Below are positions 5,001 to 45,917 of a stretch of 64,000 nucleotides of DNA, piece by piece; positions within the stretch are counted from its first letter, which is position 1, and each line of letters begins with the position of its first letter. Origin of the DNA: a candidate division TA06 bacterium B3_TA06. GTDB lineage: Bacteria > Hydrothermota > Tepidihabitantia > B3-TA06. The stretch covers positions 113,221-177,220 of the forward strand of contig NJBO01000002.1 in the NCBI GenBank assembly GCA_005223075.1, read 5' to 3'. The notes below the pieces were generated by a model. It saw nothing but the letters and a program-made list of their open reading frames with translations. It searched no databases and had not been told where the DNA came from. Both the position numbers and the translations under genes were made by a program.

Positions 5001-7461
5001 GTTCCCCGAGATCGTACGTCCGTGTCTGCAGTTCCTCCTCTGCCCGCTTGCGCTCGGCGATATCACGGAGGAAAACAAGATCAGCCGCTCGGCCTTGATA
5101 TTGGATAATCCCTGCATTAAGCTCAACGTCTATCTCCTCACCATCACGTGCAACTATTTTGGTTTCGTAGACTGAGGGCACCTGCTGGCCTGCCATACGG
5201 CGGCGGTAACGATCCAGCACACCATCGCGAAACCCCGGAGCCAGAAGGTCTTGGAACCCCATTCCAACAAGATCATCTAAGGCATATCCTCCAAGATTAG
5301 CGGCGGCTCGATTGGCAAACACAATCCTGGCGTCCTGAATAATCACGATCCCGTCAATCGCCTGCTCAACAAAGGAACGGTACTTCTCTTCGGACTCGCT
5401 CAGGCGAGAAAATAGACTGCTGTTTACTGCCGCATCGGCCACCTGGTTGGCGAAAAGACCGAACAATTCAAGATCGTGCTCTCTAAAGCCTTCTTCGCTC
5501 AGGCGAACAAGGGTCATTACCCCCCAAAGCTCTCCGTGAGCTACGAGAGGTGCAACCAAAAGACATCTAGGCGTCTCCTTGACGCCCGGTATACGTATCG
5601 CCCTATCATCGAGGTGAACGTTATTGGCAAGGATCGGCCTGCGTTCAAGCGCCGCTTTGCCGGTAATCCCTTCCCCAAGTGATATGTGATAGGCCAGTCT
5701 CTGCTCACGATCCTGGAGGATAGTGGTTGTCTTAGGTATGAGCATTTCGGTCTGTGGATCGAATCGGTAGATGGTGCAGCCGTCGGCCCCTATAAGCTCG
5801 GTAGCCCGTTCGGCTATCAGGCGGGCCACCTCCTCCTCATCAAGGGTGGCGGAAACCTGGGTGGTAACCTCAAGCAGGGTGCTTAGCTCCTGGCTGTGAC
5901 GTTTAACCTTCTCCTCGGCATGCTTGCGCTCGGTGACGTCGCGGGCAACGCCAAGGATACCAATGGCCTGATCCTGTTTATCCCGCAGAAAAGCAGCCTT
6001 GGCCTCAATACAAATCGTGGAACCATCCTTACGCTTGATCTCAAACTCCAGCGTCCTCGACCGCCCCAGATCCTTTCCCGGTGTCTCCTCCACAGCCAAC
6101 TCCTCCGTAAGAACCTCCGTGACCTCATCCAACGAGTTAGGTATCAGGAACTCTCCCAGTTCCAGAGCCATCGCCTCCTCAACCTCGTAACCCGTGAGGT
6201 TAGTAACCGAAGGACTCAGGTAGGTTAACTGCAGGTTCGTATCCATGGTAAAGATCACATCTGTAGCATTCTCGGCAAGAAGGCGATAACGAGCCTCGCT
6301 CTCCCTCAACGCCTCCTCAGCCAGCTTGCGCTCGGTGACGTCCTCCACCATTCCAAGACCGTAAAGTCCTCCACCGGATGGGTCTCGAACTGTCGTGGCG
6401 GTCAAAAATCCCCAGATTATCTGGCCGTCTTTACGGATATAGCGTTTTTCTGTCTGATACAGATCTTCTCTCTTATCTATCCGCCTCTCTTTAATTAAAT
6501 CAAGCTCTCTCTTGATATCGTCCGGATGTGTAATCTGATCCAACGTCATACCTTGCAATTCTTCGGCGCTATAACCAAGCATCTCCTGAATAGCATGATT
6601 GGTTTGCAAAAGATTTCTATCCATATCCATTAACGCCATACCGATACCGGCACGCTCGAATATGGCACGAAAGCGAGATTCGCTCTCCCGCAACGCCTGC
6701 TCTGCCCGCTTGCGTTCGGTGATGTCCATGGCTATCTCCAGCCGGACCATGCGGCCATCAACCCATCTGATCGCGCGATCCCGTATCTCACACCAGAATC
6801 CATTAATGGTATTCTGAAACTCCCACGCATAAACACCGGTCGGTTCGCCCTCGGCGCCCAGCAGCTTGTCATTCGTACAGAAATCACAAGGTCCGCTCTG
6901 ACCCTGTTGCAGAACCTGCCAACAGGTTTTGCCTTCGATATTGCCGAAATAATTACGCATCTTCTGGTTCGCAAAGAGAATCTCGTAGGTTTCCATGTCC
7001 GCGACATAAACTCCAGAATCCAGACTGTCCAACACGGTAAGGAATCTCTCATGGGACTCCCGCAGCGCCTCGGTGGCCCGCATGCGCTCGGCGCCACTAA
7101 AATCAGTGGTTTTACTCTCCACAAGCACGACCCTACTCACCCCTCCTTGAGCCTCACGTAGGGGACAGAAGGTAGTCAGCACCTCAAGCAGACGACCGTC
7201 AGCGCAACGACGCCTCAGCTTTATACCCCTCAACTCCTCCCCTGAAAATACCTGACGAATCAAGTCCTCATCGTTACTGTCCGGGGTAGCGATGAGTTCA
7301 ACTATCTTACATCCTACGGCATCCTGTCTTTTGTAGCCGTAGAGGCGTTCAGCGGCCTCGTTCCAGTCGACAACCACCCCTTCCGCGTCGCATGAAAACG
7401 AGGCCAGGGGCAAGCGTTCAAAGATAGCCTCAAACAACTCTTCTGGTACTAACTTATTCAC
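2071..7461 (-). CDS. Giant (1796 aa) multi-PAS/GAF sensor histidine kinase, HisKA_3 + HATPase_c
   Basis: About 8 PAS-linker motifs (D[IV]TERK..E.ALRESE..[YF]R) and GAF-like segments. The H-box is RIARVLHDEIAQQLTG and the ATPase motifs are NALKHA...DDGKGF...GLGLRSI. GTG start is preceded by AAGGAG. Confidence 0.93.
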   Translation of the reverse strand: MNKLVPEELFEAIFERLPLASFSCDAEGVVVDWNEAAERLYGYKRQDAVGCKIVELIATPDSNDEDLIRQVFSGEELRGIKLRRRCADGRLLEVLTTFCPLREAQGGVSRVVLVESKTTDFSGAERMRATEALRESHERFLTVLDSLDSGVYVADMETYEILFANQKMRNYFGNIEGKTCWQVLQQGQSGPCDFCTNDKLLGAEGEPTGVYAWEFQNTINGFWCEIRDRAIRWVDGRMVRLEIAMDITERKRAEQALRESESRFRAIFERAGIGMALMDMDRNLLQTNHAIQEMLGYSAEELQGMTLDQITHPDDIKRELDLIKERRIDKREDLYQTEKRYIRKDGQIIWGFLTATTVRDPSGGGLYGLGMVEDVTERKLAEEALRESEARYRLLAENATDVIFTMDTNLQLTYLSPSVTNLTGYEVEEAMALELGEFLIPNSLDEVTEVLTEELAVEETPGKDLGRSRTLEFEIKRKDGSTICIEAKAAFLRDKQDQAIGILGVARDVTERKHAEEKVKRHSQELSTLLEVTTQVSATLDEEEVARLIAERATELIGADGCTIYRFDPQTEMLIPKTTTILQDREQRLAYHISLGEGITGKAALERRPILANNVHLDDRAIRIPGVKETPRCLLVAPLVAHGELWGVMTLVRLSEEGFREHDLELFGLFANQVADAAVNSSLFSRLSESEEKYRSFVEQAIDGIVIIQDARIVFANRAAANLGGYALDDLVGMGFQDLLAPGFRDGVLDRYRRRMAGQQVPSVYETKIVARDGEEIDVELNAGIIQYQGRAADLVFLRDIAERKRAEEELQTRTYDLGERVKELNCLYVVLKLMSEPTRSLEEVFQRVVRLIPPSWQYPDIACARITFEGQEFKTDNFNETAWKQSADIRVSGEKVGSVDVCYLQERPAAHEGPFLKEERVLINALAGEIGVFTERKRASEALRESEELYRTLVNSAEEGIGLVDAEERFLFVNPKIANLVGYDQKELIGRSLLELVPSDEVEFIRSESRRRMKGEASRYETTLIHKNGTPRKVLVNAAPIYDAEGQLYVTLGVLTDITDLKKVEDELRLRLIYQTAFAQIMNRAIGIENLDTFIQACLEILGNALDASRVYLATNREVSKQGEEVHPSAPKEGPGAHVTHEWLGQGAETLLGTDYSYSKIGYIHKHLKDDEAIAALVSSLPEADSSVFRDQGALSVILAPLRLRNGFYGFIVAEEYRVARQWSNSETEAFRTAARLIGTVIDRYFEEQERRVAEEARAQSEQRYRTLVETSSDIIFLLSPSGKPLYGSPAIERMGYKPEDILREPKAFLKAIAPDDFMMLQALFAKALREGKPIHDIDCKVYDSQESSHWFAVSWNFIRDDEGRILAVQGVARDITERKQAERALRLRMEYEKVLFEISSLFLSEGVSDSSLGEFLERLARVTEVSRVYLFFHEEENSRPFMKHIHRWVSEEASELDNDRMDKVYYDQGFERWLKILSTGEAIHGLTDDLPASEREVFEAEGILAILVLPIFVEGRFWGAIGFDEVKRRREWNVEDIRLLWTASKILSSALATESKARELALSYENLQERERRISELNLRLVKAEEDERRRIARVLHDEIAQQLTGVSLVLSAPELTRESRAKERLDEAKGLVKETQNFIRDLSYELLPPALENLGLAAAVRALARSAAEGSGVSFVIQGDEGFPRADPDTEIMLYRVIQEAVTNALKHAEPDEITVRFEYTEPKLRVMVEDDGKGFDVEKVASASSGLGLRSIHERVALIGGRIELNSSVGKGTQVLIEVEIPRNSDKLFVEE

Positions 7462-7522
7462 GTCGGTTCTCTCCTTAACGTTAACATAATAAGTATCCTG
7501 GGCCTTGAGTCAAGGGGAGAAG

Positions 7523-7649
7523 ATGCTCCTTTTTCGCTACGCGAAAAAGTTCGCAGAGAAAAGACTGGCCAGCCAAGCTTGGCATGTGGTTTCTATCGGT
7601 ATCGTTCCGTCGGGGTCCCCGCAAAGTTAGTCTCTAACTTTGTGGGGTG
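7523..7649. repeat. Intergenic palindromic modules X (7523-7556) and Y (7612-7649, inverted)
   Basis: ATGCTCCTTTTTCGCTACGCGAAAAAGTTCGCAG and GGGGTCCCCGCAAAGTTAGTCTCTAACTTTGTGGGGTG. The GCCAAGCTTGGC palindrome lies between them. See findings for the family. Confidence 0.8.
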
Positions 7650-7695
7650 AGGACCGCTTGACTTCAGGGGGGTAATAAGGTAAAATTCAGATAAG

Positions 7696-8205
7696 ATGCA
7701 TGATTCCCGAAAACCCGGTATAGTAGCGAAGCGCTGCTTTATAGCAGCGGGTGCCCACCTTATAGGTCAAGTCGAGTTGGACGAGCTCTCCAGCGTATGG
7801 TACAACGCCGTCCTGCGAGGGGATATCAATTACATCAAGATCGGACGTGAAACAAACATCCAGGATAACTGCGTGCTGCACGTTACCCATGAACTGCCGT
7901 TGATAGTAGGAGATCGCGTTACCATAGGTCACGGTGCTATCGTTCATGGCTGCGTGATAGCCGACGACTGCCTCATCGGCATGGGAGCTATTGTATTGGA
8001 CGGTGCAACGATCGGAAAGGGTTCGGTTATTGCGGCCGGTGCCGTGGTCCGCGAGCGGATGGAAGTTCCACCGCACAGTCTGGTAGTTGGGGTCCCCGGG
8101 GTCATCAAACGCACACTTGATCCGTCTACTATAGAGATGATTCGCGAGGCAGGACGTTCCTACGTAGAGCTTACCAAAGAACGCCTGGCTAACACTCTAA
8201 GATGA
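7696..8205 (+). CDS. Gamma-carbonic-anhydrase-like / left-handed beta-helix (hexapeptide repeat) protein
   Basis: SVWYNAVLRGDINYIKIGRETNIQDNCVLHV...IGHGAIVHGCVI...IGMGAIVLDGATIG matches the YrdA/PaaY-type pattern. Promoter is TTGACT-17-TAAAAT, 9 nt upstream. Confidence 0.85.
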   Translation: MHDSRKPGIVAKRCFIAAGAHLIGQVELDELSSVWYNAVLRGDINYIKIGRETNIQDNCVLHVTHELPLIVGDRVTIGHGAIVHGCVIADDCLIGMGAIVLDGATIGKGSVIAAGAVVRERMEVPPHSLVVGVPGVIKRTLDPSTIEMIREAGRSYVELTKERLANTLR

Positions 8206-9899
8206 GTTACGTAAGAAAGGCCTTAGGGCTGTTGTTGGCCGCCGGGGTTCTTCTCTCGGCCACAGGATGCGTGTGGCTTTTTGTAAACAGGGACAAATAC
8301 GAGGCCGAGGCCCTGGCAGTGTTCCAGACAGGGGAGGCGTTCTACAAGAAAGCGGACTACGAGAAGGCGATATCTTCGTTCACCGCGGTCATAAAGGGTT
8401 ATCCACGCTCCGAGCTTGTAGATGACGCATACTACCTTGCCTCGCTCGCCTTTGCCAAGAAAAAGGACTGGGAGCACACTGTGGGTGCGGCCCAGCAGCT
8501 TGAGGCGGAATTCCCAGCCTCGCCGCTGATTCCTAAGGTTCAGATCGTTCTGGCGCAGGGCTATGAACACCTCGATCTTTATGTGCCCGCACTTGTAGCA
8601 TACTTCGAGACCTACCTTTATTCTGAGAGCCCTGGTGAGCGAAAGAAGGCAGAATTACAGGCCAAGAACCTGTTGGGGCGTGAGCAGGACTTCAACGTGC
8701 TTACCGACCTTTATGCTAACTATAAAGACACGGACGTAGCGGAGTGGTTCCTTTTCCGATTGGGAATGCGCGCCTATGACGTAGAGAACTTTGCGGCTGC
8801 CGAGCGCTACTTTGCCGAGCTTCGAGCGCGCTTCCCGCGAAGCCCTTATATTGACAGGATAGGAGGACGAGAGATTTCAGCTGCAGCGCTCAAGGGCGAA
8901 CTTGTCTGCGGGGTGCTCTTACCGCTCTCAGGAGACTTCTCGGCATACGCTCAGTCGGTAAGAGAGGGAATTGAACTTGCACACAGCCTTAAGGGAGGCG
9001 GCACGATTCATCTGGAGATATACGATACTCGCTCCGATCCAACCCAGGCCGCCAGGGGGGCAGAGGCCCTGATCCGCAAGCAAGCAAAGATCATCATAGG
9101 GCCACTGACCTCGGCAGAAGTAAACGCTGTTGCAAAGATCGCAGCCAAAGCCGGTATCGTTATGATCTCGCCTACCTCAACCGACCCAGGTCTGCTTTCG
9201 CTTTACGAGTGCCTTTTCCAGCTGAACTCCTACGCCGAGTCCGAGACCCGGGAGATCGCCCGATACGCGGCGCGGCGCGGCACAAAGAAATTCGGAATCC
9301 TTCACCCCAATACTGAGCAGGCTAAGACGCTTGCCGATGCGTTCGCAACCACGGTGCGATCCGAGGGTGGCGAGGTTATCTACTCTCTCCCCCTGAGCGA
9401 CACCGTGGTAGAAATGAGGCAGACTTTTCTCAATGTCCGTCACCAGGGCGCCCAGGCTCTTTTCTTGCCCTTTGACCGTCAACAGCTGCTTTCGGTAGTT
9501 CCACAAGTGGTATACTATAGAATGAAGGTACGCATCCTGGGCCTGGATGACTTTGCGGATATGGAGATTCTTCGCCGCGGCGGGGCACCCTTTGAGGGGG
9601 CGTGGTTTGCCGCATCTGGAGGGCATCTTGCAAATCCTATACCGTTCGAGACGTTCTTTGCTCACTACACCAGACGCTACAACAAAGAGCCTGACTGGGC
9701 CGCAACCCTTGGATACGATGCCTACAACTTCATCTACGAGGCCCTCAGTCAGGGTAAGGATCTCTCCCTGTGCCAGGCGCTCCGAGGACTTGAGAACCGC
9801 CGGGGGGTACTGGGACGCCTCCTATTCCTTACCAATCCCAGCGAGCCCTCGGTGCGTATCTACACAATTCACTCCAACGAAGTGAAGGAGATTAAATGA
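8202..9899 (+). CDS. Lipoprotein with N-terminal TPR region and C-terminal type-1 periplasmic-binding fold (LpoA / LivK-like)
   Basis: Lipobox is LLSATGC. Has TPR-like helical repeats. The C-terminal part (IGPLTSAEVNAVAKIA...ISPTST...) resembles Leu/Ile/Val-binding-protein family receptors. Confidence 0.65.
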   Translation: MSYVRKALGLLLAAGVLLSATGCVWLFVNRDKYEAEALAVFQTGEAFYKKADYEKAISSFTAVIKGYPRSELVDDAYYLASLAFAKKKDWEHTVGAAQQLEAEFPASPLIPKVQIVLAQGYEHLDLYVPALVAYFETYLYSESPGERKKAELQAKNLLGREQDFNVLTDLYANYKDTDVAEWFLFRLGMRAYDVENFAAAERYFAELRARFPRSPYIDRIGGREISAAALKGELVCGVLLPLSGDFSAYAQSVREGIELAHSLKGGGTIHLEIYDTRSDPTQAARGAEALIRKQAKIIIGPLTSAEVNAVAKIAAKAGIVMISPTSTDPGLLSLYECLFQLNSYAESETREIARYAARRGTKKFGILHPNTEQAKTLADAFATTVRSEGGEVIYSLPLSDTVVEMRQTFLNVRHQGAQALFLPFDRQQLLSVVPQVVYYRMKVRILGLDDFADMEILRRGGAPFEGAWFAASGGHLANPIPFETFFAHYTRRYNKEPDWAATLGYDAYNFIYEALSQGKDLSLCQALRGLENRRGVLGRLLFLTNPSEPSVRIYTIHSNEVKEIK

Positions 9900-10126
9900 A
9901 AAAAAGGAGAAGGAAGGAGATAGTGGGCGCGCCCCAGACGCCCCGCTTTCAGCTTATTAACTGGGTGCTGCTGGCCGCAGCGATTATCCTGATAGCATTA
10001 GGTTTCTACAGCCTTTCGCGCGGCTCCATCACCCTTGCCCCAATCCTTCTCGTTGCAGGCTACTGTGTAGTGGTGCCGCTGGCTCTGCTCCTGCGAGTAA
10101 AACCCAAAGAAAAAGATCATGCCTGA
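9896..10126 (+). CDS. Small two-TM membrane protein, unknown function
   Basis: 76-aa ORF, start overlaps the upstream stop (ATGA). Basic N-terminus followed by two hydrophobic helices. Confidence 0.5.
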   Translation: MKKRRRKEIVGAPQTPRFQLINWVLLAAAIILIALGFYSLSRGSITLAPILLVAGYCVVVPLALLLRVKPKEKDHA

Positions 10127-10667
10127 GCGCTGTGTAGCCGACGCGGTCGAAATAAACCGGATGATCATCCGCATCGCTACTCAGATAATCGAACGCAACA
10201 AAGGGGTCGAGAATCTTGCGCTTGTGGGTATCGTTCGGCGAGGAGACGCGCTGGCTCGACGCCTGGCCGCCGAACTTAAGCACCTGGAGGGACTCGATGT
10301 CCCTGTGGGAGCAATAGATATAACCCTTTACCGGGACGATCTTCAGCTTGCAGCTGAGATGCCCATAGTCCAGGCGACATCAATACCTTTCGATGTAACG
10401 GGCAAGATTATCGTGCTCGTAGACGACGTGCTCTACACCGGGCGCACGGTAAGGGCGGCCTTAACCGAGCTCCTTGACTTTGGAAGACCCAAAATAGTCC
10501 AGCTGGCTGTATTGGTCGATCGCATCCACCGGGAGCTACCAATAGGAGGGGATTTCATCGGCCGCAAGATACCCGCTTCAACGAATGAGATAGTAGACGT
10601 ATTCCTTAAAGAAACCGATGGACGAGAGGGCATATTTATTAAGAAAAAAGAACCAGAGGAGGGATAG
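10119..10667 (+). CDS. pyrR: Bifunctional pyrimidine operon regulator / uracil phosphoribosyltransferase PyrR
   Basis: PRPP-binding loop IVLVDDVLYTGRTVRAAL. Size and position directly upstream of pyrB fit PyrR. Confidence 0.9.
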   Translation: MPERCVADAVEINRMIIRIATQIIERNKGVENLALVGIVRRGDALARRLAAELKHLEGLDVPVGAIDITLYRDDLQLAAEMPIVQATSIPFDVTGKIIVLVDDVLYTGRTVRAALTELLDFGRPKIVQLAVLVDRIHRELPIGGDFIGRKIPASTNEIVDVFLKETDGREGIFIKKKEPEEG

Positions 10668-10669
10668 AA

Positions 10670-11605
10670 GTGACCTGGACTCACAAGAACCTGTTGGGTC
10701 TTGAGGGATTATCCAGGGAAGAGATAACCTTCATACTCGACACCGCAGAGCGATTCCACGAGGTGCTGGACAGACCCATTCCTCTGGTGCCGGCCCTGCG
10801 CGGAAAGACCATCCTGAATATGTTCTACGAGGCCTCAACCCGAACCGCCACCTCGTTCGCCATGGCAGCAAAGAGGCTCTCTGCCGACGTGGTCGGGTTC
10901 AGCAAGGCCGCATCGAGCGTGAGTAAGGGCGAGACCCTTCTGGATACGGTTCGCACCATCGAGTCCATGCGGGTAGACGGGGTGGTGATACGTCACTCCT
11001 GTCCTGGTGCTGCCCGCTTTATCGCCCAAAGGATCGACGCCTTCGTGGTAAACGCAGGTGACGGTGCGCACGAGCATCCCACCCAGGGGCTTCTGGATCT
11101 CTTCGCTGTCCGCAAAAGGTTGGGGAGTTTCGAGGACAGACATCTGGTAATCGTAGGCGATATTACTCACAGCCGGGTGGCACACTCAGCCATCTACGGC
11201 TTCTCCACACTGGGTGCTGAGATCACGGTGTGTGGGCCAGCGACCCTTATACCACCTCATTTTAAGAAGGCCTTCCCTGACGTAGAGACCGAGACCGATT
11301 TCGACAAGGCTCTTGTGGATGCGGACATGATAATGATGCTTCGCTTACAGCTTGAGCGCCAAGGCAAGGGGCTCTTTCCTTCGATAAGGGAGTACCGCAA
11401 GCTCTACTGCCTGACCGCAGAGCGCATGAAGAAGGCGAAACCCGATGTGGTGGCTATGCATCCGGGACCGATTAACAGAGGGATAGAGATAGAACCGGCT
11501 GTAGCCGACGGTCCGAACTCGGTGGTATTGGCTCAGGTGCGCGCCGGTGTGGCGGTACGCATGGCGGTCCTTTACATACTTGCAGGAGGTGAGCTTGAGC
11601 ACTAG
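10670..11605 (+). CDS. pyrB: Aspartate carbamoyltransferase catalytic subunit
   Basis: Signature motifs FYEASTRTATSF, HPTQGLLD and HPGPINRG. Confidence 0.95.
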   Translation: MTWTHKNLLGLEGLSREEITFILDTAERFHEVLDRPIPLVPALRGKTILNMFYEASTRTATSFAMAAKRLSADVVGFSKAASSVSKGETLLDTVRTIESMRVDGVVIRHSCPGAARFIAQRIDAFVVNAGDGAHEHPTQGLLDLFAVRKRLGSFEDRHLVIVGDITHSRVAHSAIYGFSTLGAEITVCGPATLIPPHFKKAFPDVETETDFDKALVDADMIMMLRLQLERQGKGLFPSIREYRKLYCLTAERMKKAKPDVVAMHPGPINRGIEIEPAVADGPNSVVLAQVRAGVAVRMAVLYILAGGELEH

Positions 11606-21419: not shown

Positions 21420-21492
21420 GGGGGCGTAGCTCAGCCGGGAGAGCACCTGCTTTGCAAGCAGGAAGTCGGCGGTTCGAGTCCGCTCGCCTCCA
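21420..21492 (+). tRNA. tRNA-Ala (anticodon UGC), no encoded CCA
   Basis: GGGGGCG acceptor stem pairing with CGCCTCC, including the G3:U70 pair. D-arm TAGCTCAGCCGGGAGAGC, anticodon loop CTTTGCAAG and T-arm GGTTCGAGTCC. Confidence 0.95.
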
Positions 21493-21498
21493 TTTTTT

Positions 21499-21706
21499 AC
21501 CCCACGCAGATACGTCGTATCTGCGTGGGGACCCCGATTATGCACCCCGCACGATCGCTACGCGCTCGTGCGGGGACCCCGATTAAAATGCTCCTTTTTG
21601 CCTCTGGCAAAAAGATCGGAAGTAATAAATCGAAAAGTCAACCCTTTAGGTTGGCTTTCATTATCTCCTCTGCGATCTTTTTACCCTCTAGGGTAAAAAG
21701 GAGCAT
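21499..21706. repeat. Cluster of intergenic palindromic modules: Y (21499-21535), Y (21543-21580), X (21588-21619), Z (21637-21655), X inverted (21670-21706)
   Basis: Y = CACCCC-hairpin-GGGGACCCC. X = ATGCTCCTTTT-hairpin-AAAAGATCGCAG. Z = GCCAACC..GGTTGGC. Compare the copies listed in findings. Confidence 0.85.
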
Positions 21707-22478: not shown

Positions 22479-24360
22479 GGCGAACAAGGATTCCTCAAAA
22501 CCTACCAGGAAGCGAAAGCACGTAGCCTCAGACATTCTTCTTGTGGGACAGCCCAACGTTGGCAAGAGCGTTTTGTTCTCGCGCATGACCGGCATCCGCA
22601 CCATCGCCTCCAACTATCCAGGCACCACGGTAGGCTACACCTCAGGCAGGATGCGGTTTGCCAACGATATTTATGACGTAGTGGATGCTCCGGGCACCTA
22701 CTCGCTTGAGCCTTTAGACGACGCGGCAAAGGTGGCCGTTGATCTCATTGACGAAGCTAGGCGGATCATCAACGTAGTAGACGCGACCCACCTGGAGCGG
22801 CATCTCACCCTCACCCTTGAGCTTATCGCCCAGGGAAAACCGATGGTTGTTGCTCTAAACATGAGCGACGAGGCGCGGCACAAGGGAATCGAGATAGATG
22901 TCAGCAGACTGGCAAAGAGGCTGGGTGTACCGGTTATCCCGACGGTGGCCCGTACCGGCGAGGGAGTGAAAAGATTGATCCTGGCTACACTTTCACTAGA
23001 TCTGAAGAAAATAGGGAGGGAGGAGGGCGGCCATCCAGGGCACCATCCTCACATTGCCCATCATCCTGTCGGAAACCACACAAGGGGGCATAAGCATATA
23101 CCGGAGAAGAAGGCGTGGACAAAAGTAGGAGAGATTGTGGATGAGGTGCAAATTCTGCATCATCATCATCACACCTTCGGCCAGTGGTTTGAGGAGGCAA
23201 GCGTACATCCGGTCTGGGGCGGATTGGTTGCAATACTGGTTTTAGCCGTCTCCTTCATCCTCATCCGGATTATCGGCGAGTTCCTGATCGGAGGGGGGAT
23301 TGGGATCGTAGGAAATCCATGGGTCGAGCTCCCCTTCGGCACCGAGAAACTGTTCGAGGTTGCGTGGAAGCCTGTGATGATGAAGCTTTCCGGGTTATTG
23401 GGTGAGGGAAGCTTTCTGCACAATCTATTTATCGGCCAGCTCATCGGCGGCCAGATAGACTTCATGCAGTCCTTCGGGATATTGACTTCCGGTCTGTTTA
23501 TTCCTCTTGGAGCGGTGCTCCCCTACATCGTAAGCTTCTACTTCGTACTGGGGATATTGGAGGATACAGGTTATCTGCCCAGGCTGGCGGTGTTTTTGGA
23601 TAACATCATGCACCGGCTTGGACTGCACGGGTATGCAATAATACCAACGCTTCTGGGTCTGGGCTGCAACGTGCCCGGGGTGATGGCGACAAGGATTCTG
23701 GAGACAAAGCGGCAGCGCTTCATCACAGCTACGTTGATATCCATAGCCGTGCCGTGTGCGGCGCTTCAGGCGATGATTATCGGCCTTGTGGGCGAGCGCG
23801 GGTTATGGCCGGTGGCCCTGATCTACGGCATCCTTTTTGTGGTGTGGATTCTGATCGGGGTGATCCTGCGGTTCACCTCAAAAGGGTTCCGGCCAGAGCT
23901 TCTCATTGAGATCCCCCCTTACCGGGCACCTTCCTGGCGTGCTCTGGGCTCCAAGCTGTGGATGCGCATCACCGGTTTTTTAAAGGAAGCCTTGCCGGTT
24001 GTTTTGGGAGCAGTGGTTGTTGTTAACCTTCTCTATCAGTTCAACGTGTTCCGCTACATAGCCAGAGCCGCAGCACCTGTGGTGAGTTTCCTCTGGGGCC
24101 TGCCCAAGGAGGCCATCGCGCCCTTGCTGGTAGGGATATTAAGGAAAGACGTGGCTATCGGCATGTTCGCACCATTGAATCTGACAATCAAGCAGTTGGT
24201 GATCGGAAGCGTGGTTTTATCCATGTTCTTCCCCTGCATCGCGACCTTCGTTATCATGTTCCGTGAGCTGGGCCTAAAGGACGCGTTGAAATCTATAGGC
24301 ATCATGTTTATTGCCGTGATCATTGTAGGTACGGCCATAAACTTCCTCTGGCCGGGATGA
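22471..24360 (+). CDS. feoB: Ferrous iron transporter FeoB with a His-rich linker
   Basis: G1 motif is GQPNVGKS and G3 is DAPG. Has a polytopic membrane domain. A His-rich segment at ~23020-23175 includes HHHHH. Confidence 0.95.
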   Translation: MAKANKDSSKPTRKRKHVASDILLVGQPNVGKSVLFSRMTGIRTIASNYPGTTVGYTSGRMRFANDIYDVVDAPGTYSLEPLDDAAKVAVDLIDEARRIINVVDATHLERHLTLTLELIAQGKPMVVALNMSDEARHKGIEIDVSRLAKRLGVPVIPTVARTGEGVKRLILATLSLDLKKIGREEGGHPGHHPHIAHHPVGNHTRGHKHIPEKKAWTKVGEIVDEVQILHHHHHTFGQWFEEASVHPVWGGLVAILVLAVSFILIRIIGEFLIGGGIGIVGNPWVELPFGTEKLFEVAWKPVMMKLSGLLGEGSFLHNLFIGQLIGGQIDFMQSFGILTSGLFIPLGAVLPYIVSFYFVLGILEDTGYLPRLAVFLDNIMHRLGLHGYAIIPTLLGLGCNVPGVMATRILETKRQRFITATLISIAVPCAALQAMIIGLVGERGLWPVALIYGILFVVWILIGVILRFTSKGFRPELLIEIPPYRAPSWRALGSKLWMRITGFLKEALPVVLGAVVVVNLLYQFNVFRYIARAAAPVVSFLWGLPKEAIAPLLVGILRKDVAIGMFAPLNLTIKQLVIGSVVLSMFFPCIATFVIMFRELGLKDALKSIGIMFIAVIIVGTAINFLWPG

Positions 24361-24416: not shown

Positions 24417-24445
24417 TTGACACGTGCGGCTGACGGCTCTATAAT
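24417..24445 (+). promoter_or_regulatory. Consensus promoter TTGACA-17-TATAAT, 5 nt from ATG 24451 (leaderless)
   Basis: TTGACACGT at 24417 and TATAAT at 24440-24445. No Shine-Dalgarno sequence. Confidence 0.6.
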
Positions 24446-24450
24446 GTTCC

Positions 24451-25839
24451 ATGACTGAATTGGTGATGGATGACCCTTTTGGCTTCCACAAAAGCCTTGA
24501 GGAGGGTGTGTTCAAGCTGGAGGAGGTGGGAAAGTTGTATGGGGAAGATGAAACTAGTTATTTAGATGGTAAGGAATTCCAATTTGAACTTGTGGTTCGA
24601 CTGAAAGGAAACATTGGGGGGCGAATAGTTTTATCTCCCGTTGATCCATCCTCCAATATAGATGACATAGAGAACGAGATTAACCAAATCAGAAGCACAA
24701 AGCAGGATGGTATATCTGCGTTTACATGGAAATTGGTTGGAGAATTAAAAGGCGAACCGATAGTAGTGAAAACCATATATATATCCTCTGAGGAGAAGAG
24801 TTATCTGCCGTCTCCTAATTATAAGTTGATTTGTGGGTTCTTTGAGTTTGAGTGGGGAGAGGATAAAGGGAAATATGAATCTTGTTTGACTTGGGTTCCC
24901 AATGTGGAATTCGGAGGGTGTGCAGGCACTACCTATCAAGAAGGTAACATCTCTAAGAGTCGTTTGGATCACTGTCAACTATCTTATCCATCCTTGCTTG
25001 GAGGATTGGAAGTCGAGATGCGTCAGCTTCGTAACTATAAGAAGATTTTAAATCACTTGATGTTGAATGGCGGATCGGCGGTTACCTCTATTTGCAACTT
25101 TGAATCCTCATCACCAGCTTCGATAAAGGATTTCTTAGAAATTATAAAGAGATTTTTTCGCCTAGTTTCTTTTGCTTCCGGGAAGTCTATTCTTCCTTTG
25201 GCCTATCATTTTAAGGGTGAGACTGAGATTCTTATCTTAAAACCTCTCAACAGAGTCAGCTACACCAAAACACTAACATGGTGCGATTACGATGATACCC
25301 CCCATTTTTTAGCAGAAGCGCTACAGGAACTTCTGCCTCATTACTTTTCGCTTGATGTGAAGCTACGAGATTTACTTGAGCTTGCATTTTACTTCTACAT
25401 AAACCTGAAGACGATAAGTCACTTCAGTACGGATATTATTCTTCTGGCAACGATCTATGAAAGTTACACATGTTCGGATTTTTTTCTACCTAGTAGCTTA
25501 AGAGAGGGTAAGAATTTACAGGAAAAAATCAAAGAACTATTACTTCGTGAGGATATGTCTTGCGAAAATGATCTTCTGAAGGTTTTCATTGTTTTGAGAA
25601 ATGCAATCATACATAGCCCTCATAAGCTAGTTAATCTTATAAATTCAGATGCTAAGCGTTCAATTCGATACATGCTTCGACAAGCTGAAATACTGACCTT
25701 GAAATGTCTGAATTACACTGGTCAATTCCGTGATACATGGCTAGTGGTTAAAGACCCATCTAAAACGTATCCTGTCTTTAGATTTGGCACAATCCTGAAG
25801 CGGCTGAAGAAAGAGAAAGAAGCTGCGGAATCAAATTAG
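24451..25839 (+). CDS. 462-aa protein with C-terminal RNxxxH (HEPN-type, ApeA/Abi-like) motif; candidate anti-phage RNase
   Basis: Long AT-rich ORF. VFIVLRNAIIHSPHKL lies near residue ~390 inside a predicted helical C-terminal domain. The N-terminal ~250 aa is beta-rich with no motif I recognise. Confidence 0.5.
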   Translation: MTELVMDDPFGFHKSLEEGVFKLEEVGKLYGEDETSYLDGKEFQFELVVRLKGNIGGRIVLSPVDPSSNIDDIENEINQIRSTKQDGISAFTWKLVGELKGEPIVVKTIYISSEEKSYLPSPNYKLICGFFEFEWGEDKGKYESCLTWVPNVEFGGCAGTTYQEGNISKSRLDHCQLSYPSLLGGLEVEMRQLRNYKKILNHLMLNGGSAVTSICNFESSSPASIKDFLEIIKRFFRLVSFASGKSILPLAYHFKGETEILILKPLNRVSYTKTLTWCDYDDTPHFLAEALQELLPHYFSLDVKLRDLLELAFYFYINLKTISHFSTDIILLATIYESYTCSDFFLPSSLREGKNLQEKIKELLLREDMSCENDLLKVFIVLRNAIIHSPHKLVNLINSDAKRSIRYMLRQAEILTLKCLNYTGQFRDTWLVVKDPSKTYPVFRFGTILKRLKKEKEAAESN

Positions 25840-25921
25840 GATATACCTCAGCACACCCTCGCCTGCACCACCGCTTGGTGGTGGGTGTCAGGTCGACCCG
25901 AAAACTTAAAATGAGGTCAAC

Positions 25922-26041
25922 TTGAAAAACAAAGGTCTCGTAACCTTCCTGATCACGCTTGCCGCGTTCGGAGCAACCTACATGCTGCTTGTATTCACAT
26001 CACGGTGGAGCAACGCGGCCTACAGCGTCGCAAGAATTTAA
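25922..26041 (+). CDS. Possible 39-aa single-TM peptide
   Basis: GAGG-N5-TTG, then MKNKGLVTFLITLAAFGATYMLLVFTSRWSNAAYSVARI*. Below the ORF-track size cut-off. Weak evidence only. Confidence 0.25.
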   Translation: MKNKGLVTFLITLAAFGATYMLLVFTSRWSNAAYSVARI

Positions 26042-26064
26042 GAACCGGTGTAAGGTGTGTCTTA

Positions 26065-26093
26065 TTGACACGTTAACTTATCGCAAGTATAAT
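26065..26093 (+). promoter_or_regulatory. Consensus promoter TTGACA-17-TATAAT, 5 nt from ATG 26099 (leaderless)
   Basis: TTGACACGT at 26065 and TATAAT at 26088-26093. Confidence 0.6.
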
Positions 26094-26098
26094 TACCC

Positions 26099-27055
26099 AT
26101 GCTCAAGCGCGTCATGACCTTCCTGAGACAAAGAGTTACAATACTTGTTGACTTTCGTATCAGGTTGAAACCAATTCGTCTCATTGCTCCCAAGTGGATA
26201 TTGTTGGTCATCTGTCTTATTATGGTGTCCTTCATTGGCACTGGTGGACGCTCGATTTTCTGCTGTGTGGGAAATCAAATCGTTTCCTGTAAGTTAATCC
26301 GACTGGAACAAAAGAATCAAGAGCTGCTGGGAAAGTATACGGAACTTGAAGAGGATGCGGATTCCCTTGGAGAGTTGCTGGCGCTTATGGAAAGCCACGA
26401 TATTCAACTCCGCATGTATAAGAATATGGAGATATGGCCTGAAGATATCCGCCAGCTTGGTGTCGGTGGTCCTGCAGTAGAAACTCCGGAGATGATCGAA
26501 CTGCGAGAGATGGGTAGTTCACATTACCATGGAGTTGCAGAGATCAAGAAATCCATAGATGCGCTTCTTCGCAAGGCGCTCTACCAGCAGGAAAGCTTTG
26601 TCGAGATCGAAAAAAAGCTCACCAAAGACGAATACATGCTTGACCATACCCCTTCAATTACACCTACTGAAGGGCATCTGACCAGCGGTTTCGGTTACAG
26701 AATAGATCCCTTTCTCCACTGCATCAAGATGCACACCGGAGTTGACATATCCAACAAGCCGGGGACTCCAATCCTGGCCAGTGCCGACGGTGTAGTCTCC
26801 TTCACCGGCTACCTGTCAGGGTACGGTCTTACCGTAAAGATAGATCACGGGAATGAGATTGAGACCCTGTACGGACATCTTTCCGAATTCTACGTCAAGG
26901 AAGGGCAAAGCGTGCTGCGTGGAGAAGCAATAGGTGCTATGGGTAATACCGGACGCTCCACCGGCCCGCATCTGCACTACGAAGTAAGGGTTGCCGGTAG
27001 GCCAATCAACCCCAAAGGTTACTTCCTCGACGAAGTTCGTAGGGGCCAACCTTAA
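26099..27055 (+). CDS. M23 (LytM-type) metallopeptidase with N-terminal TM anchor and coiled coil
   Basis: HTGVDISNKPGTPILASADGVV...GHLSEF...GNTGRSTGPHLHYEV gives the HxxxD and HxH zinc motifs. Confidence 0.9.
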   Translation: MLKRVMTFLRQRVTILVDFRIRLKPIRLIAPKWILLVICLIMVSFIGTGGRSIFCCVGNQIVSCKLIRLEQKNQELLGKYTELEEDADSLGELLALMESHDIQLRMYKNMEIWPEDIRQLGVGGPAVETPEMIELREMGSSHYHGVAEIKKSIDALLRKALYQQESFVEIEKKLTKDEYMLDHTPSITPTEGHLTSGFGYRIDPFLHCIKMHTGVDISNKPGTPILASADGVVSFTGYLSGYGLTVKIDHGNEIETLYGHLSEFYVKEGQSVLRGEAIGAMGNTGRSTGPHLHYEVRVAGRPINPKGYFLDEVRRGQP

Positions 27056-27077
27056 GGTTGGCCCGTTCATAATATTC

Positions 27078-27188
27078 TTCGTTATCATGTTCCGGGAGCT
27101 GGGCGGCAAGGACGCATTGAAATCCATCGGCATCATGCTGGCCGCGGTGATAGTAGTGGGCGCGGCCATAAACCTCCTCTGGCCGTAA
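27078..27188 (+). pseudogene. Displaced feoB 3' fragment (last ~36 codons only)
   Basis: FVIMFRELGGKDALKSIGIMLAAVIVVGAAINLLWP* compares with the feoB end FVIMFRELGLKDALKSIGIMFIAVIIVGTAINFLWPG*. About 80% nt identity by hand alignment. No upstream feoB body. Confidence 0.75.
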
Positions 27189-28933: not shown

Positions 28934-29308
28934 GCCAACCTTTGGTTGGCTTACATGTTGGTTCTTGCAATCCTTTGCGCGTAGCGCAAAGGGAGCATTT
29001 AAACACCCCACACATCTGCTACGCATCTGTGCGGGGACCCCGAATATGCTCCTTTTCTCCTGCGGAGAAAAGATCGCAGGGATAAAATTTAAAGTGCACC
29101 GACCACATTGTTGCATTCTCTTTTTGTCGCTTTCTCATAAAGTAAGCATTTCCTGAAAATCTACATTAAGAATCAAAAGATGCACCCTTAAAGTTTTGTG
29201 AAACCTGCCAGCTTCCTGACCCTCCTATTCTGCGATCTTTTTGCGCTCTGCGCAAAAAGGAGCAAATATTTGGGGTCCCCACAAAAACGTGAAACGTTTT
29301 TGTGGGGT
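28934..29308. repeat. Cluster of palindromic modules: Z (28934-28950), X-variant (28966-28998), Y (29004-29041), X (29046-29079), X inverted (29230-29265), Y inverted (29272-29308)
   Basis: Same conserved flanks as the other copies, with different stem sequences. Confidence 0.85.
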
Positions 29309-44715: not shown

Positions 44716-45420
44716 ATGGCTTTAACGAAACAGCAGAAACTTCAAGTCTTTCGTATCATTGAGGAAGCGGAAGAAGGTGTAAATCTCAATAGAATTATAG
44801 ATGGAACATTGAAAGACGTGATCCGAGGTAGTGGCTCTTCACCTGAATTTGGGTACGATAAAGTGGAAGCATCTAAAGAAGAAATCCGGTCATACTGGCA
44901 AGAACTTCAAACTAAAGGGTATATTATTCCCATAAATAATTACACTAAGGACTGGTTCAAGCTTTCACCAAAAGGCAAAAATTATTGCGAAAGACTAAAG
45001 GCTTCACAAACGGAACCACTTGATGTTGATCTGGACTCCGTGATTTTCCATGAGCAGCTTCGGGAAGAAATAAGGACTCTCTTTGAAGATGGCGAATATG
45101 CAGAGTGTGTGGTTAAGGGTGCAAGATTGCTAGAACGCCTGCTCCGAAACAAAACGGGGTCACCTACTGATGTAAAAGGGGTTGGGTTAGCTTCATTAGC
45201 TTTCAAGCCTGAGGAAGGTGAGCTAATTGCACCATATTGCCAAGAAAAAAGTCACGAAGAAGGCTTTCACTGTTTATACTTAGGTGCTATTAAGTTTATT
45301 CGGAATCTAGCCATCCATCATTCAGAAACATTAAACGATCAGATTGATAATCTGCAAATGCTTATCTTCCTTGATCTTCTTTTTCGACTATTGGAGAAGT
45401 CAAAACCCAGGAAACCATGA
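44716..45420 (+). CDS. wHTH-like N-terminal domain + TIGR02391/Hypoth_Ymh-like HEPN domain (RNxxxH)
   Basis: AT-rich ORF. The C-terminal half EDGEYAECVVKGARLLERLLRNKTG...GVGLASLAF...EEGFHCLYLGAIKFIRNLAIHH follows the TIGR02391 pattern as I recall it (...G...L..G....[IL]RN..AH). Confidence 0.6.
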   Translation: MALTKQQKLQVFRIIEEAEEGVNLNRIIDGTLKDVIRGSGSSPEFGYDKVEASKEEIRSYWQELQTKGYIIPINNYTKDWFKLSPKGKNYCERLKASQTEPLDVDLDSVIFHEQLREEIRTLFEDGEYAECVVKGARLLERLLRNKTGSPTDVKGVGLASLAFKPEEGELIAPYCQEKSHEEGFHCLYLGAIKFIRNLAIHHSETLNDQIDNLQMLIFLDLLFRLLEKSKPRKP

Positions 45421-45917
45421 TGATGGTTGAACTGCTTGTGAGCACGATAGCAGGCGCTATTGTTGGTGGAATACTTGTGTTTGTTTCGACGTGGTTATTT
45501 GACATAATCAAAATAAGGCCGCGATTCGGCGTTCAAGTTCCTGCAGCCTCTAAGTATCATTCTACCGGAAGACGCAAAGGAGAAGACGTTATCGCATGGA
45601 AAATACAATTGACTTTATTGAAGGGACAGTTCCCAATTATCCATGGGGTTCAACTATTAAATAAACAGAAAACCCCATGTTTGCTTTATAGTGACAATAC
45701 GACAGAACACATGCCTACTGGGGATACTTACATTCGATCGTATAAAATAAGACCAGTTGAATCTAAAGAAACGATTAATCCTGCTGTTTCCTTCAGGGCT
45801 AATTGTGCAATGGAGGAAAAACCATATTACTTAAAACTCTATTTTAATTTGAACAAACGTAAGATTATTAAAATCCCCCCAATCGAAATTGAGAAGTACC
45901 TAGAAGATTGGCAATAA
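45417..45917 (+). CDS. N-terminally membrane-anchored protein of unknown function, translationally coupled to the HEPN gene
   Basis: ATGA overlap. The TM helix is LLVSTIAGAIVGGILVFVSTWLF, followed by a ~135-aa beta-rich soluble part. AT-rich. Confidence 0.6.
   Translation: MMMVELLVSTIAGAIVGGILVFVSTWLFDIIKIRPRFGVQVPAASKYHSTGRRKGEDVIAWKIQLTLLKGQFPIIHGVQLLNKQKTPCLLYSDNTTEHMPTGDTYIRSYKIRPVESKETINPAVSFRANCAMEEKPYYLKLYFNLNKRKIIKIPPIEIEKYLEDWQ

Follow-up and report, generated by a model that had tools for sequence, protein, structure and literature searches.

A divergent YopA/ApeA-NTD1-like HEPN protein, probably a one-protein anti-phage RNase, in an accessory islet of a candidate division TA06 bacterium

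The locus and its gene

The stretch analysed here (the window) comprises 64,000 nucleotides of contig NJBO01000002.1 of candidate division TA06 bacterium B3_TA06, and its FeoB is 90% identical to FeoB of a metagenome-assembled genome of Candidatus Stahlbacteria (WOR-3). Between feoB and glcD lies the gene with which this report is concerned, an intact open reading frame for a 462-residue protein whose C-terminal part is assigned below to the HEPN ribonucleases; it shares its islet with the remnant of a membrane-protein gene and with an M23 peptidase gene (Table 1). The GC content of the gene is 0.396 (0.395 at third codon positions, GC3), as against 0.54-0.55 (GC3 0.63-0.66) for the flanking feoB and glcD, and it ranks first in AT richness among the window's 28 open reading frames that encode 250 aa or more, whose median GC is 0.542, in line with an earlier reading of the letters alone (the sequence-only reading), which had listed it as one of the two most AT-rich.

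The sequence-only reading had also pointed to a consensus promoter that would yield a leaderless mRNA, and this promoter is perfect and correctly placed. Consensus promoters that end close to a start codon occur five times in the window as compared to 0.2 times in shuffles (24417-24451, 26065-26099, 30427 on the reverse strand, 46443, and 7696), with a promoter-to-start spacing of 5-6 nt, or 9 nt at 7696, so leaderless transcription appears to be a habit of this genome. A leaderless consensus promoter also precedes the family gene in all sequenced relatives (L001, L003, L004, and L030), which suggests that leaderless mRNAs are widespread in Ca. Stahlbacteria.

Table 1. Features of the HEPN gene and of the islet in which it lies (positions are those of the window).
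Feature	Position	Strand	Remark
Left repeat copy, 109 nt, functional feoB 3' end	24246..24354	+	98% identical to the empty site in L005
Sigma-70 consensus promoter TTGACA-17-TATAAT	24417..24445	+	12/12 matches; ends 5 nt before the ATG, leaderless mRNA
Coding sequence, 462 aa, YopA/ApeA-NTD1-like HEPN protein	24451..25839	+	ATG start
Residues 1-31 (MTELVMDDPFGFHKSLEEGVFKLEEVGKLYG)	24451..24543	+	best-conserved segment within the close family
Residues 1-280, N-terminal beta-rich and alpha/beta middle region, presumed sensor/regulator	24451..25290	+	model; ApeA_NTD1 matches; YopA_M matches on relatives
Codon 25, GAG (Glu)	24523..24525	+	89% of the 128 relatives, and all other close ones, have Gly
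HEPN domain, residues ~285-420	25303..25710	+	profile matches of relatives and consensus; model
Recombination tract, ~770 nt	25326..26098		60-90% identical to L002, flanks 99-100%
Putative catalytic motif R383-N384-A-I-I-H388 (R-x4-H)	25597..25614	+	invariant R/H; aligned with YopA FRNKIVHP
39-codon remnant of a 206-aa multi-pass membrane-protein gene	25922..26041	+	ATG->TTG, premature stop
M23 peptidase gene	26099..27055	+	own leaderless consensus promoter, 26065-26093
Right repeat copy, displaced non-functional feoB 3' end	27077..27185	+	82% identical to L005, 89-93% to the WOR-3 genome L008

Relatives and conservation

Close relatives of the protein are few. Six proteins were found among 5.8 billion clusters (one 92% identical, the others 28-38%), and an exhaustive profile search added P0007 and fragments and a metagenome scan added L030, for a total of ~8; no close-family member was found in 185,579 species-representative (GTDB) genomes or in IMG/VR. 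When an exhaustive hidden Markov model (HMM) search was run with the profile of the 7-sequence close family, it reached 343 clusters (at 50% identity) with E <= 1e-3, 38 of them with E <= 1e-10, mostly of ~450 aa and aligned over most of their length. A third, word-indexed homologue search with the deep profile added almost nothing. The description of the protein as an orphan thus holds for its close relatives and fails at the level of the profile.

Residues 379-391 of the protein, FIVLRNAIIHSPH, contain the R-x4-H motif with Asn after the Arg from which a HEPN RNase had originally been proposed. All seven members of the close family have R383, N384, and H388, and when 128 full-length relatives are aligned no column other than those of R383 and H388 is invariant, N384 being present in 84%; the HEPN signature R-x4-6-H, in which a polar residue usually follows the Arg, is therefore retained throughout, and conservation of the motif in homologues was one of the points on which the sequence-only reading had beforehand staked its proposal. 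Other positions conserved among the 128 relatives are N151 (99%), G244 (94%), L417 (92%), T212 (91%), Y422 (90%), and E337 (84%), and G97, N151, T212, and G244 constitute family-wide conserved residues of the N-terminal and middle region. We considered whether conservation of the N-terminal segment might reflect a constraint at the nucleotide level and rejected this, as synonymous sites vary and only 57-70% of third bases are shared.

Family assignment

When scanned on its own, the window protein yielded no match to a HEPN profile of Pfam at E <= 10, and a PHROGs scan returned noise only. Its close homologues score 19.7-22.2 bits on HEPN_Apea, below the gathering score of 24.4, and the remote full-length relatives P0012 (35.1 bits) and P0016 (30.5 bits), which match the close-family profile over nearly their full length (E 1e-20 and 8.5e-16), exceed it. 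The consensus of the deep-family HMM scores 41.2 bits on HEPN_Apea, covering model positions 1-127 of 136, and 38.6 bits on HEPN_RiboL-PSP. Among 105 relatives, 23 match HEPN_Apea and 11 match HEPN_RiboL-PSP at E <= 1e-3. These scores, together with the confidently modelled helical C-terminal domain described below, support the HEPN identity that had been proposed from the motif.

The N-terminal region is more divergent. ApeA_NTD1 gives 24.5 bits (E 2.3e-5; cutoff 25.5) on the deep-family consensus, over model positions 25-214 of 271, and 19.8 bits on the close-family consensus, and at E <= 1e-3 it matches two of the 105 relatives (best E 1.1e-6). The PADLOC model 'Cas13-ApeA' matches six of the 105, and PADLOC v2 gave no match for the protein or for either family consensus.

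The nearest named relative is YopA of the Bacillus prophage SPβ (NP_046623.1; Pfam YopA_M, PF26308, and YopA_C, PF27216). Alignment of YopA with the close-family profile by hhalign gave a probability of 96.9% (E 1.7e-10, 266 columns), and with the deep-family profile 99.9% (E 2.7e-32, 301 columns). The homology spans the middle and C-terminal ~270-300 residues and brings the R-N-x3-H motifs into register (FRNKIVHP in YopA); the two proteins (438 aa in YopA vs 462 aa) are ~18% identical, and their first ~140 residues are unaligned. Precomputed YopA_M/YopA_C annotation is weak on the family members P0002, P0003, and P0005, strong on remote relatives, and absent from P0001, P0004, and P0006. Both genes are on accessory DNA, YopA's in a Firmicute prophage, where it adjoins genes for helix-turn-helix (HTH) and RES-domain proteins, and the window gene as a solitary chromosomal cassette in WOR-3.

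Remote homology thus identifies the protein as a very divergent member of the YopA/ApeA-NTD1-type HEPN proteins, and by the same profile evidence its N-terminal ~280 residues are homologous to the YopA_M/ApeA_NTD1 region. The ApeA-type label given by the sequence-only reading fits the domain layout defined by Anantharaman et al. (2013, PMC3710099) and the consensus score on ApeA_NTD1; it fits less well with the absence of a PADLOC match and with YopA as the nearest named relative. Given the lack of a PADLOC match and the mostly α-helical make-up of the E. coli ApeA proteins that have been studied, we describe the protein as ApeA-like rather than canonical ApeA. Nothing specific was found in support of the further suggestion that it is Abi-like.

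Predicted structure

With only 7 aligned sequences AlphaFold gave a poor model (predicted local distance difference test, pLDDT, 56), which was replaced by one computed from the 128-sequence alignment; the latter has a pLDDT of 93.4 and a predicted template modelling (TM) score, pTM, of 0.92. In this model residues 1-263 are predicted to form 13 strands and 4 helices, followed by a linker and a helical C-terminal domain, in agreement with the division into a beta-rich N-terminal part and a helical C-terminal third that had been anticipated from the sequence. The predicted C-terminal helices (pLDDT >90) comprise residues 285-300, 303-321, 325-340, 373-388, and 399-419, and the fourth of these, 373-388, would end in the R-N-x3-H motif.

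Foldseek returned small-domain matches at probabilities of 0.4-0.8 to Hcp, tail-tube, and distal-tail (Dit) proteins and to the HepT / SO_3166 HEPN toxins; the output carried no query coordinates, so which of them belong to the N-terminal and which to the C-terminal part is our own inference. The matches to the HEPN toxins (5yep and 6m6u) are weak (E 0.26-0.28, probability 0.44-0.54), and one borderline BFVD match to a tail protein has a TM score of 0.14-0.20. We treat the resemblances to Hcp, tail-tube, and Dit proteins as leads only.

Genomic contexts of the family

The hosts of L001 and L030, the relatives with informative flanks, are Ca. Stahlbacteria, and in both the family gene occupies a second chromosomal site, between two ~220-aa genes and groES, where it is again solitary. 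At this site too it has a leaderless consensus promoter and a low GC content (0.38-0.40 vs 0.51-0.56), and the site is empty in the relative L033. Overall, GC content is 0.37-0.40 for the family gene and 0.51-0.56 for its flanks, ~14 points below its hosts. The gene is thus a low-GC, accessory, horizontally moving cassette whose presence or absence is polymorphic at two sites in Ca. Stahlbacteria.

The contexts of remote members are a small and unsystematic sample. Of the five that extend over at least 6 kb, four are defence islands, so the neighbourhood check that had been proposed at the outset came out in favour of a defence association, and the wider family is associated with defence islands. 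L021 carries an OLD/AriA/GajA-like ATPase-TOPRIM gene together with genes for a 1,647-aa helicase-nuclease and a WYL protein; L024-L026 carry a type III restriction-modification (R-M) system, a toxin-deaminase pair, and DUF6615; L027 has AbiEi_2 and a Schlafen-like protein, inserted in an ABC-transporter operon; and L028 carries two GmrSD genes, a second HEPN_Apea-like gene, R-M genes, and UvrD-PDDEXK. A SIR2-like gene lies upstream in L018.

Two of these loci have peculiarities of their own. In L027, a metagenome contig, the AbiEi_2, Schlafen AlbA_2-like, and YopA-like HEPN genes are interleaved singly (5629-11353) in a branched-chain amino-acid ABC-transporter operon, where defence-like single genes alternate between permease and ATPase genes. 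In L028, from a Firmicute-like genome, a 349-aa protein with a weak HEPN_Apea match (8573-9622) is encoded directly upstream of the YopA-like gene, and the two are possibly a paralogous pair.

The islet between feoB and glcD

In the closest relative, L005, feoB is directly followed by a 459-aa glcD-like gene and the islet is absent, as expected for the insertion that had been proposed; the window carries 2,831 extra bp at this site, between two copies of a 109-nt direct repeat. The repeat is imperfect, with 82% identity between its two copies of the feoB end. Because the functional copy, on the left, is native-like, we rejected the classical integrase scenario, which would have the functional feoB end come from the element; neither the islet and its surroundings nor the second site contains an integrase, transposase, or phage gene. 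The islet may have been gained by the window or lost from L005 through recombination between the repeats. The cargo at the feoB site of other genomes consists of a TonB-dependent receptor and a membrane protein, on which ground we also rejected the idea that this hotspot is a defence island.

The HEPN gene is separated from the upstream gene by 90 nt, and the small reading frame downstream of it is the membrane-protein-gene remnant, an intact 206-aa version of which lies downstream of feoB in L008 (12500-13120) and L012 (11029-11649). The remnant belongs to the islet and is no part of the HEPN system. The M23 peptidase gene likewise travels in the islet, and as it does not adjoin other family members it was rejected as a component of the system.

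Several other features of the window were noted. At the right junction of the islet, the end of the M23 gene is overlapped by a palindrome, GGGGCCAACCTTAAGGTTGGCCC (~27043-27065), and a ~48-nt element with this palindrome recurs in L008 (6640-6687 and 17823-17865) and may be an element resembling repetitive extragenic palindromes (REP) or miniature inverted-repeat transposable elements (MITE), or a terminator. A ~75-nt intergenic repeat, present at 21543-21621 and 29004-29079 and matching intergenic places in L005, L006, and L008, represents an uncharacterised repeat that is dispersed in Stahlbacteria genomes. The sole tRNA gene of the window, tRNA-Ala(TGC) at 21420-21492, is ~3 kb upstream of the islet and not at its boundary. 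Finally, the gene for a 234-aa protein (44716-45420, + strand) with an R-N-x3-H motif (IKFIRNLAIHH) makes up a second AT-rich spot (GC ~0.41) together with the overlapping gene that follows it, for a 166-aa predicted membrane protein (45417-45917, + strand); the two are a candidate second HEPN gene pair. No PDB relative of the 234-aa protein was found, and its kinship with the YopA-like family was rejected (hhalign 0.9%).

Exchange of the HEPN module

Comparison with the 92% identical orthologue in L002 revealed a sharply bounded divergent tract (Table 1) that runs from codon ~292 through the HEPN module, the intergenic region, and the membrane-gene remnant. Because the divergence starts at the HEPN boundary and lies between nearly identical flanks, the HEPN module has evidently been exchanged by recombination. 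Upstream, codons 1-280 differ by 2 amino acid changes (nonsynonymous rate dN 0.003, synonymous rate dS 0.006, and their ratio omega 0.54, from only ~3 substitutions), as compared with 35 amino acid changes in codons 281-462 (dN 0.112, dS 0.575, omega 0.195). The M23 gene, used as a control, has dN 0.015, dS 0.03, and omega 0.495. By these substitution rates, both alleles of the HEPN module are under purifying selection, and both keep the catalytic motif.

One of the two N-terminal differences between the window allele and L002 is G25E. Glu25 may attenuate the protein, or it may stem from an error in sequencing or assembly. The window allele also lacks an insertion of ~45 aa between HEPN helices that is carried by P0002-P0006, a short form that it has in common with L002.

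Comparison with characterised HEPN systems

ApeA-NTD1 was defined as a region that is ~300 aa long, consists largely of beta-strands, and is joined to an Apea-type HEPN domain (Anantharaman et al. 2013, PMC3710099). The modelled beta-rich N-terminal ~280 aa and C-terminal helices of the window protein agree with this definition and with the ApeA/BMEI1217 family (PF18862 + PF18739), although the protein itself misses both gathering scores. In contrast, the studied Ec1ApeA and Ec2ApeA have ~580 aa and a predominantly α-helical structure that includes a catenin-like N-domain and a Mid domain resembling PafA; they form doughnut-shaped decamers or dodecamers, are activated via a pocket lying between their N-terminal domain and the HEPN domain, and cut tRNA anticodon loops or RNA-phage genomes, and HepT 5YEP is among the closest structural homologues reported for HEPN_ApeA (bioRxiv 10.64898/2026.01.26.701840, 10.64898/2026.03.20.713152). 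The window protein resembles them in being a single protein with a C-terminal Apea-type HEPN domain, a large N-terminal region, and no partner gene, and 5YEP, the nearest solved HEPN structure for ApeA, is also a weak match of its model; it differs in its length of 462 aa and its beta-rich N-terminal half. By analogy, ApeA provides a plausible mechanistic model for the window protein, that of an RNase that is gated by a ligand and cleaves the anticodon loops of tRNAs or phage RNA.

The HepT/MNT-type HEPN toxins (SO_3166, 5YEP; 6M6U) have an R-x4-H HEPN core, as is predicted for the window protein, and resemble its model weakly in structure. However, they are toxins of ~130 aa that are paired with an MNT antitoxin, whereas the window protein has a fused N-terminal region of 280 aa, and neither an MNT nor any other partner reading frame is present in its flanks or at other family loci.

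Discussion

With moderate confidence, we favour the interpretation that the product of the gene is a cytoplasmic RNase of the YopA/ApeA-NTD1-HEPN_Apea superfamily, with sensor and effector in a single polypeptide, probably acting as a one-protein anti-phage defence. Homology and context suggest the anti-phage function, and by analogy the protein would probably be a self-gated defence RNase. By analogy with ApeA, PrrC, Cas13, and the HEPN enzymes at large, we envisage a protein that would dimerise via its HEPN domains, forming a composite active site, and that would be produced constitutively and kept in an inactive state by its N-terminal domains; intramolecular control is proposed because there is no antitoxin partner gene, tandem repeat, or Rfam RNA that might otherwise provide it. 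An infection cue sensed at the interface between the N-terminal region and the HEPN domain would switch the enzyme on, and the active RNase would cleave tRNA anticodon loops or other RNAs and thereby block phage propagation.

A number of results weigh against this interpretation. The window protein alone passes no curated model: in Pfam it matches only ApeA_NTD1, at 16.4 bits (cutoff 25.5; E 0.0068, residues 216-260), and it has no PADLOC or NCBIfam match. No sequence relative was found in the PDB for the protein or for the two profiles, and comparison of the model with the PDB and BFVD by Foldseek produced no convincing match, none in the PDB having E < 1e-3. The gene's own neighbours, feoB, the M23 peptidase gene, and glcD, are neither defence nor mobile genes, and one remote member, L029, is surrounded by housekeeping genes only. 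A literature search turned up no functional work on YopA or ApeA_NTD1 proteins, and no member of the beta-rich branch, YopA included, with an experimental study. The proposed RNA target, trigger, and oligomeric state of the window protein are pure analogy, and the Glu25 substitution and the missing ~45-aa insertion imply that the window allele could be impaired.

This last point can be taken further, in that G25E and the loss of the inter-helix insertion might have silenced the protein, leaving a decaying allele in a mosaic islet of remnants. The Gly replaced is found in 89% of the family and in each of the other close relatives, the ~45 aa missing relative to P0002-P0006 lie inside the HEPN region, and the islet does hold a truncated gene and a displaced feoB end. 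We nevertheless regard inactivation as unlikely, as the reading frame is intact and its promoter perfect, the short form is also that of L002 and folds confidently in the model, omega is 0.195 across the divergent module, and G25 is the only catalytic or family-conserved residue not kept. That YopA is encoded by a prophage, beside HTH and RES genes, and that the islet is flanked by a duplicated target-gene end, as are integrative elements, might instead point to a tool by which a mobile element or prophage achieves superinfection exclusion or host takeover rather than to chromosomal host defence. We consider this quite improbable: neither site has an integrase, transposase, or phage gene, IMG/VR contains no close relative, a tblastn search against phage records found nothing, and SPβ YopA is the only match to a family member among 50,697 phage records. 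As exclusion by a prophage is itself a form of anti-phage defence, this alternative in any case overlaps with the one that we favour.

Many small HEPN proteins are toxins of toxin-antitoxin (TA) systems, and the location of the gene in an accessory islet and the weak structural resemblances to HepT / SO_3166 could be read as those of a toxin, of a HEPN-MNT pair or of a type III system with an RNA antitoxin, that stabilises the islet and has no anti-phage role. A type III system or other RNA partner was rejected, since the islet contains no tandem repeats and no Rfam RNA, and a TA toxin of either kind seems very unlikely for a solitary 462-aa protein with a large N-terminal region, unlike the minimal HepT, that has no MNT or small partner gene, the small reading frame downstream being the unrelated membrane-gene remnant, and that is solitary at other loci as well. 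A further alternative would be an enzyme of housekeeping or stress-related RNA processing (tRNA or rRNA maturation or decay) rather than an immune protein: in Stahlbacteria the gene sits among core genes (feoB/glcD; ffh/groES), L029 has a housekeeping context, and HEPN families such as Las1, Swt1, and the RNase LS relatives process cellular RNA (PMC3710099). Such a role is most unlikely, however, given the extreme patchiness of the family, with ~8 close relatives among the 5.8 billion clusters and none in the species-representative genomes, the empty syntenic sites in the closest relatives, the GC content ~14 points below that of the hosts, the replacement of the HEPN module by recombination, and the presence of most remote relatives in defence islands.

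Within the favoured interpretation of a one-protein defence RNase, the weak fold resemblances of the N-terminal region to Hcp, tail-tube, and distal-tail proteins led us to a more specific proposal, which we offer as a long shot: the beta-rich branch might be a distinct kind of one-protein sensor that recognises a phage structural protein or assembly intermediate and then releases the HEPN RNase, and swaps of the HEPN module might be a means of escape from phage RNase inhibitors. Sensing of this kind would differ from that of the α-helical ApeA, whose ligands are nucleotides.

The protein adds a member to a known, computationally defined branch and does not represent a novel type of system. 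With it, the ApeA/YopA-type HEPN family reaches into WOR-3/Stahlbacteria, a phylum that is largely uncultured, and, lying below all curated Pfam, NCBIfam, and PADLOC models, the protein is missed by current detectors. The beta-rich NTD1/YopA branch to which it belongs, comprising 343 clusters, has an N-terminal fold that differs from that of the ApeA proteins for which a mechanism was worked out in 2026, and the link to SPβ YopA leads to a genetically tractable system, B. subtilis. The swap of the HEPN module at a domain boundary between near-identical strains constitutes a clean natural exchange of an effector module in a candidate immune gene.

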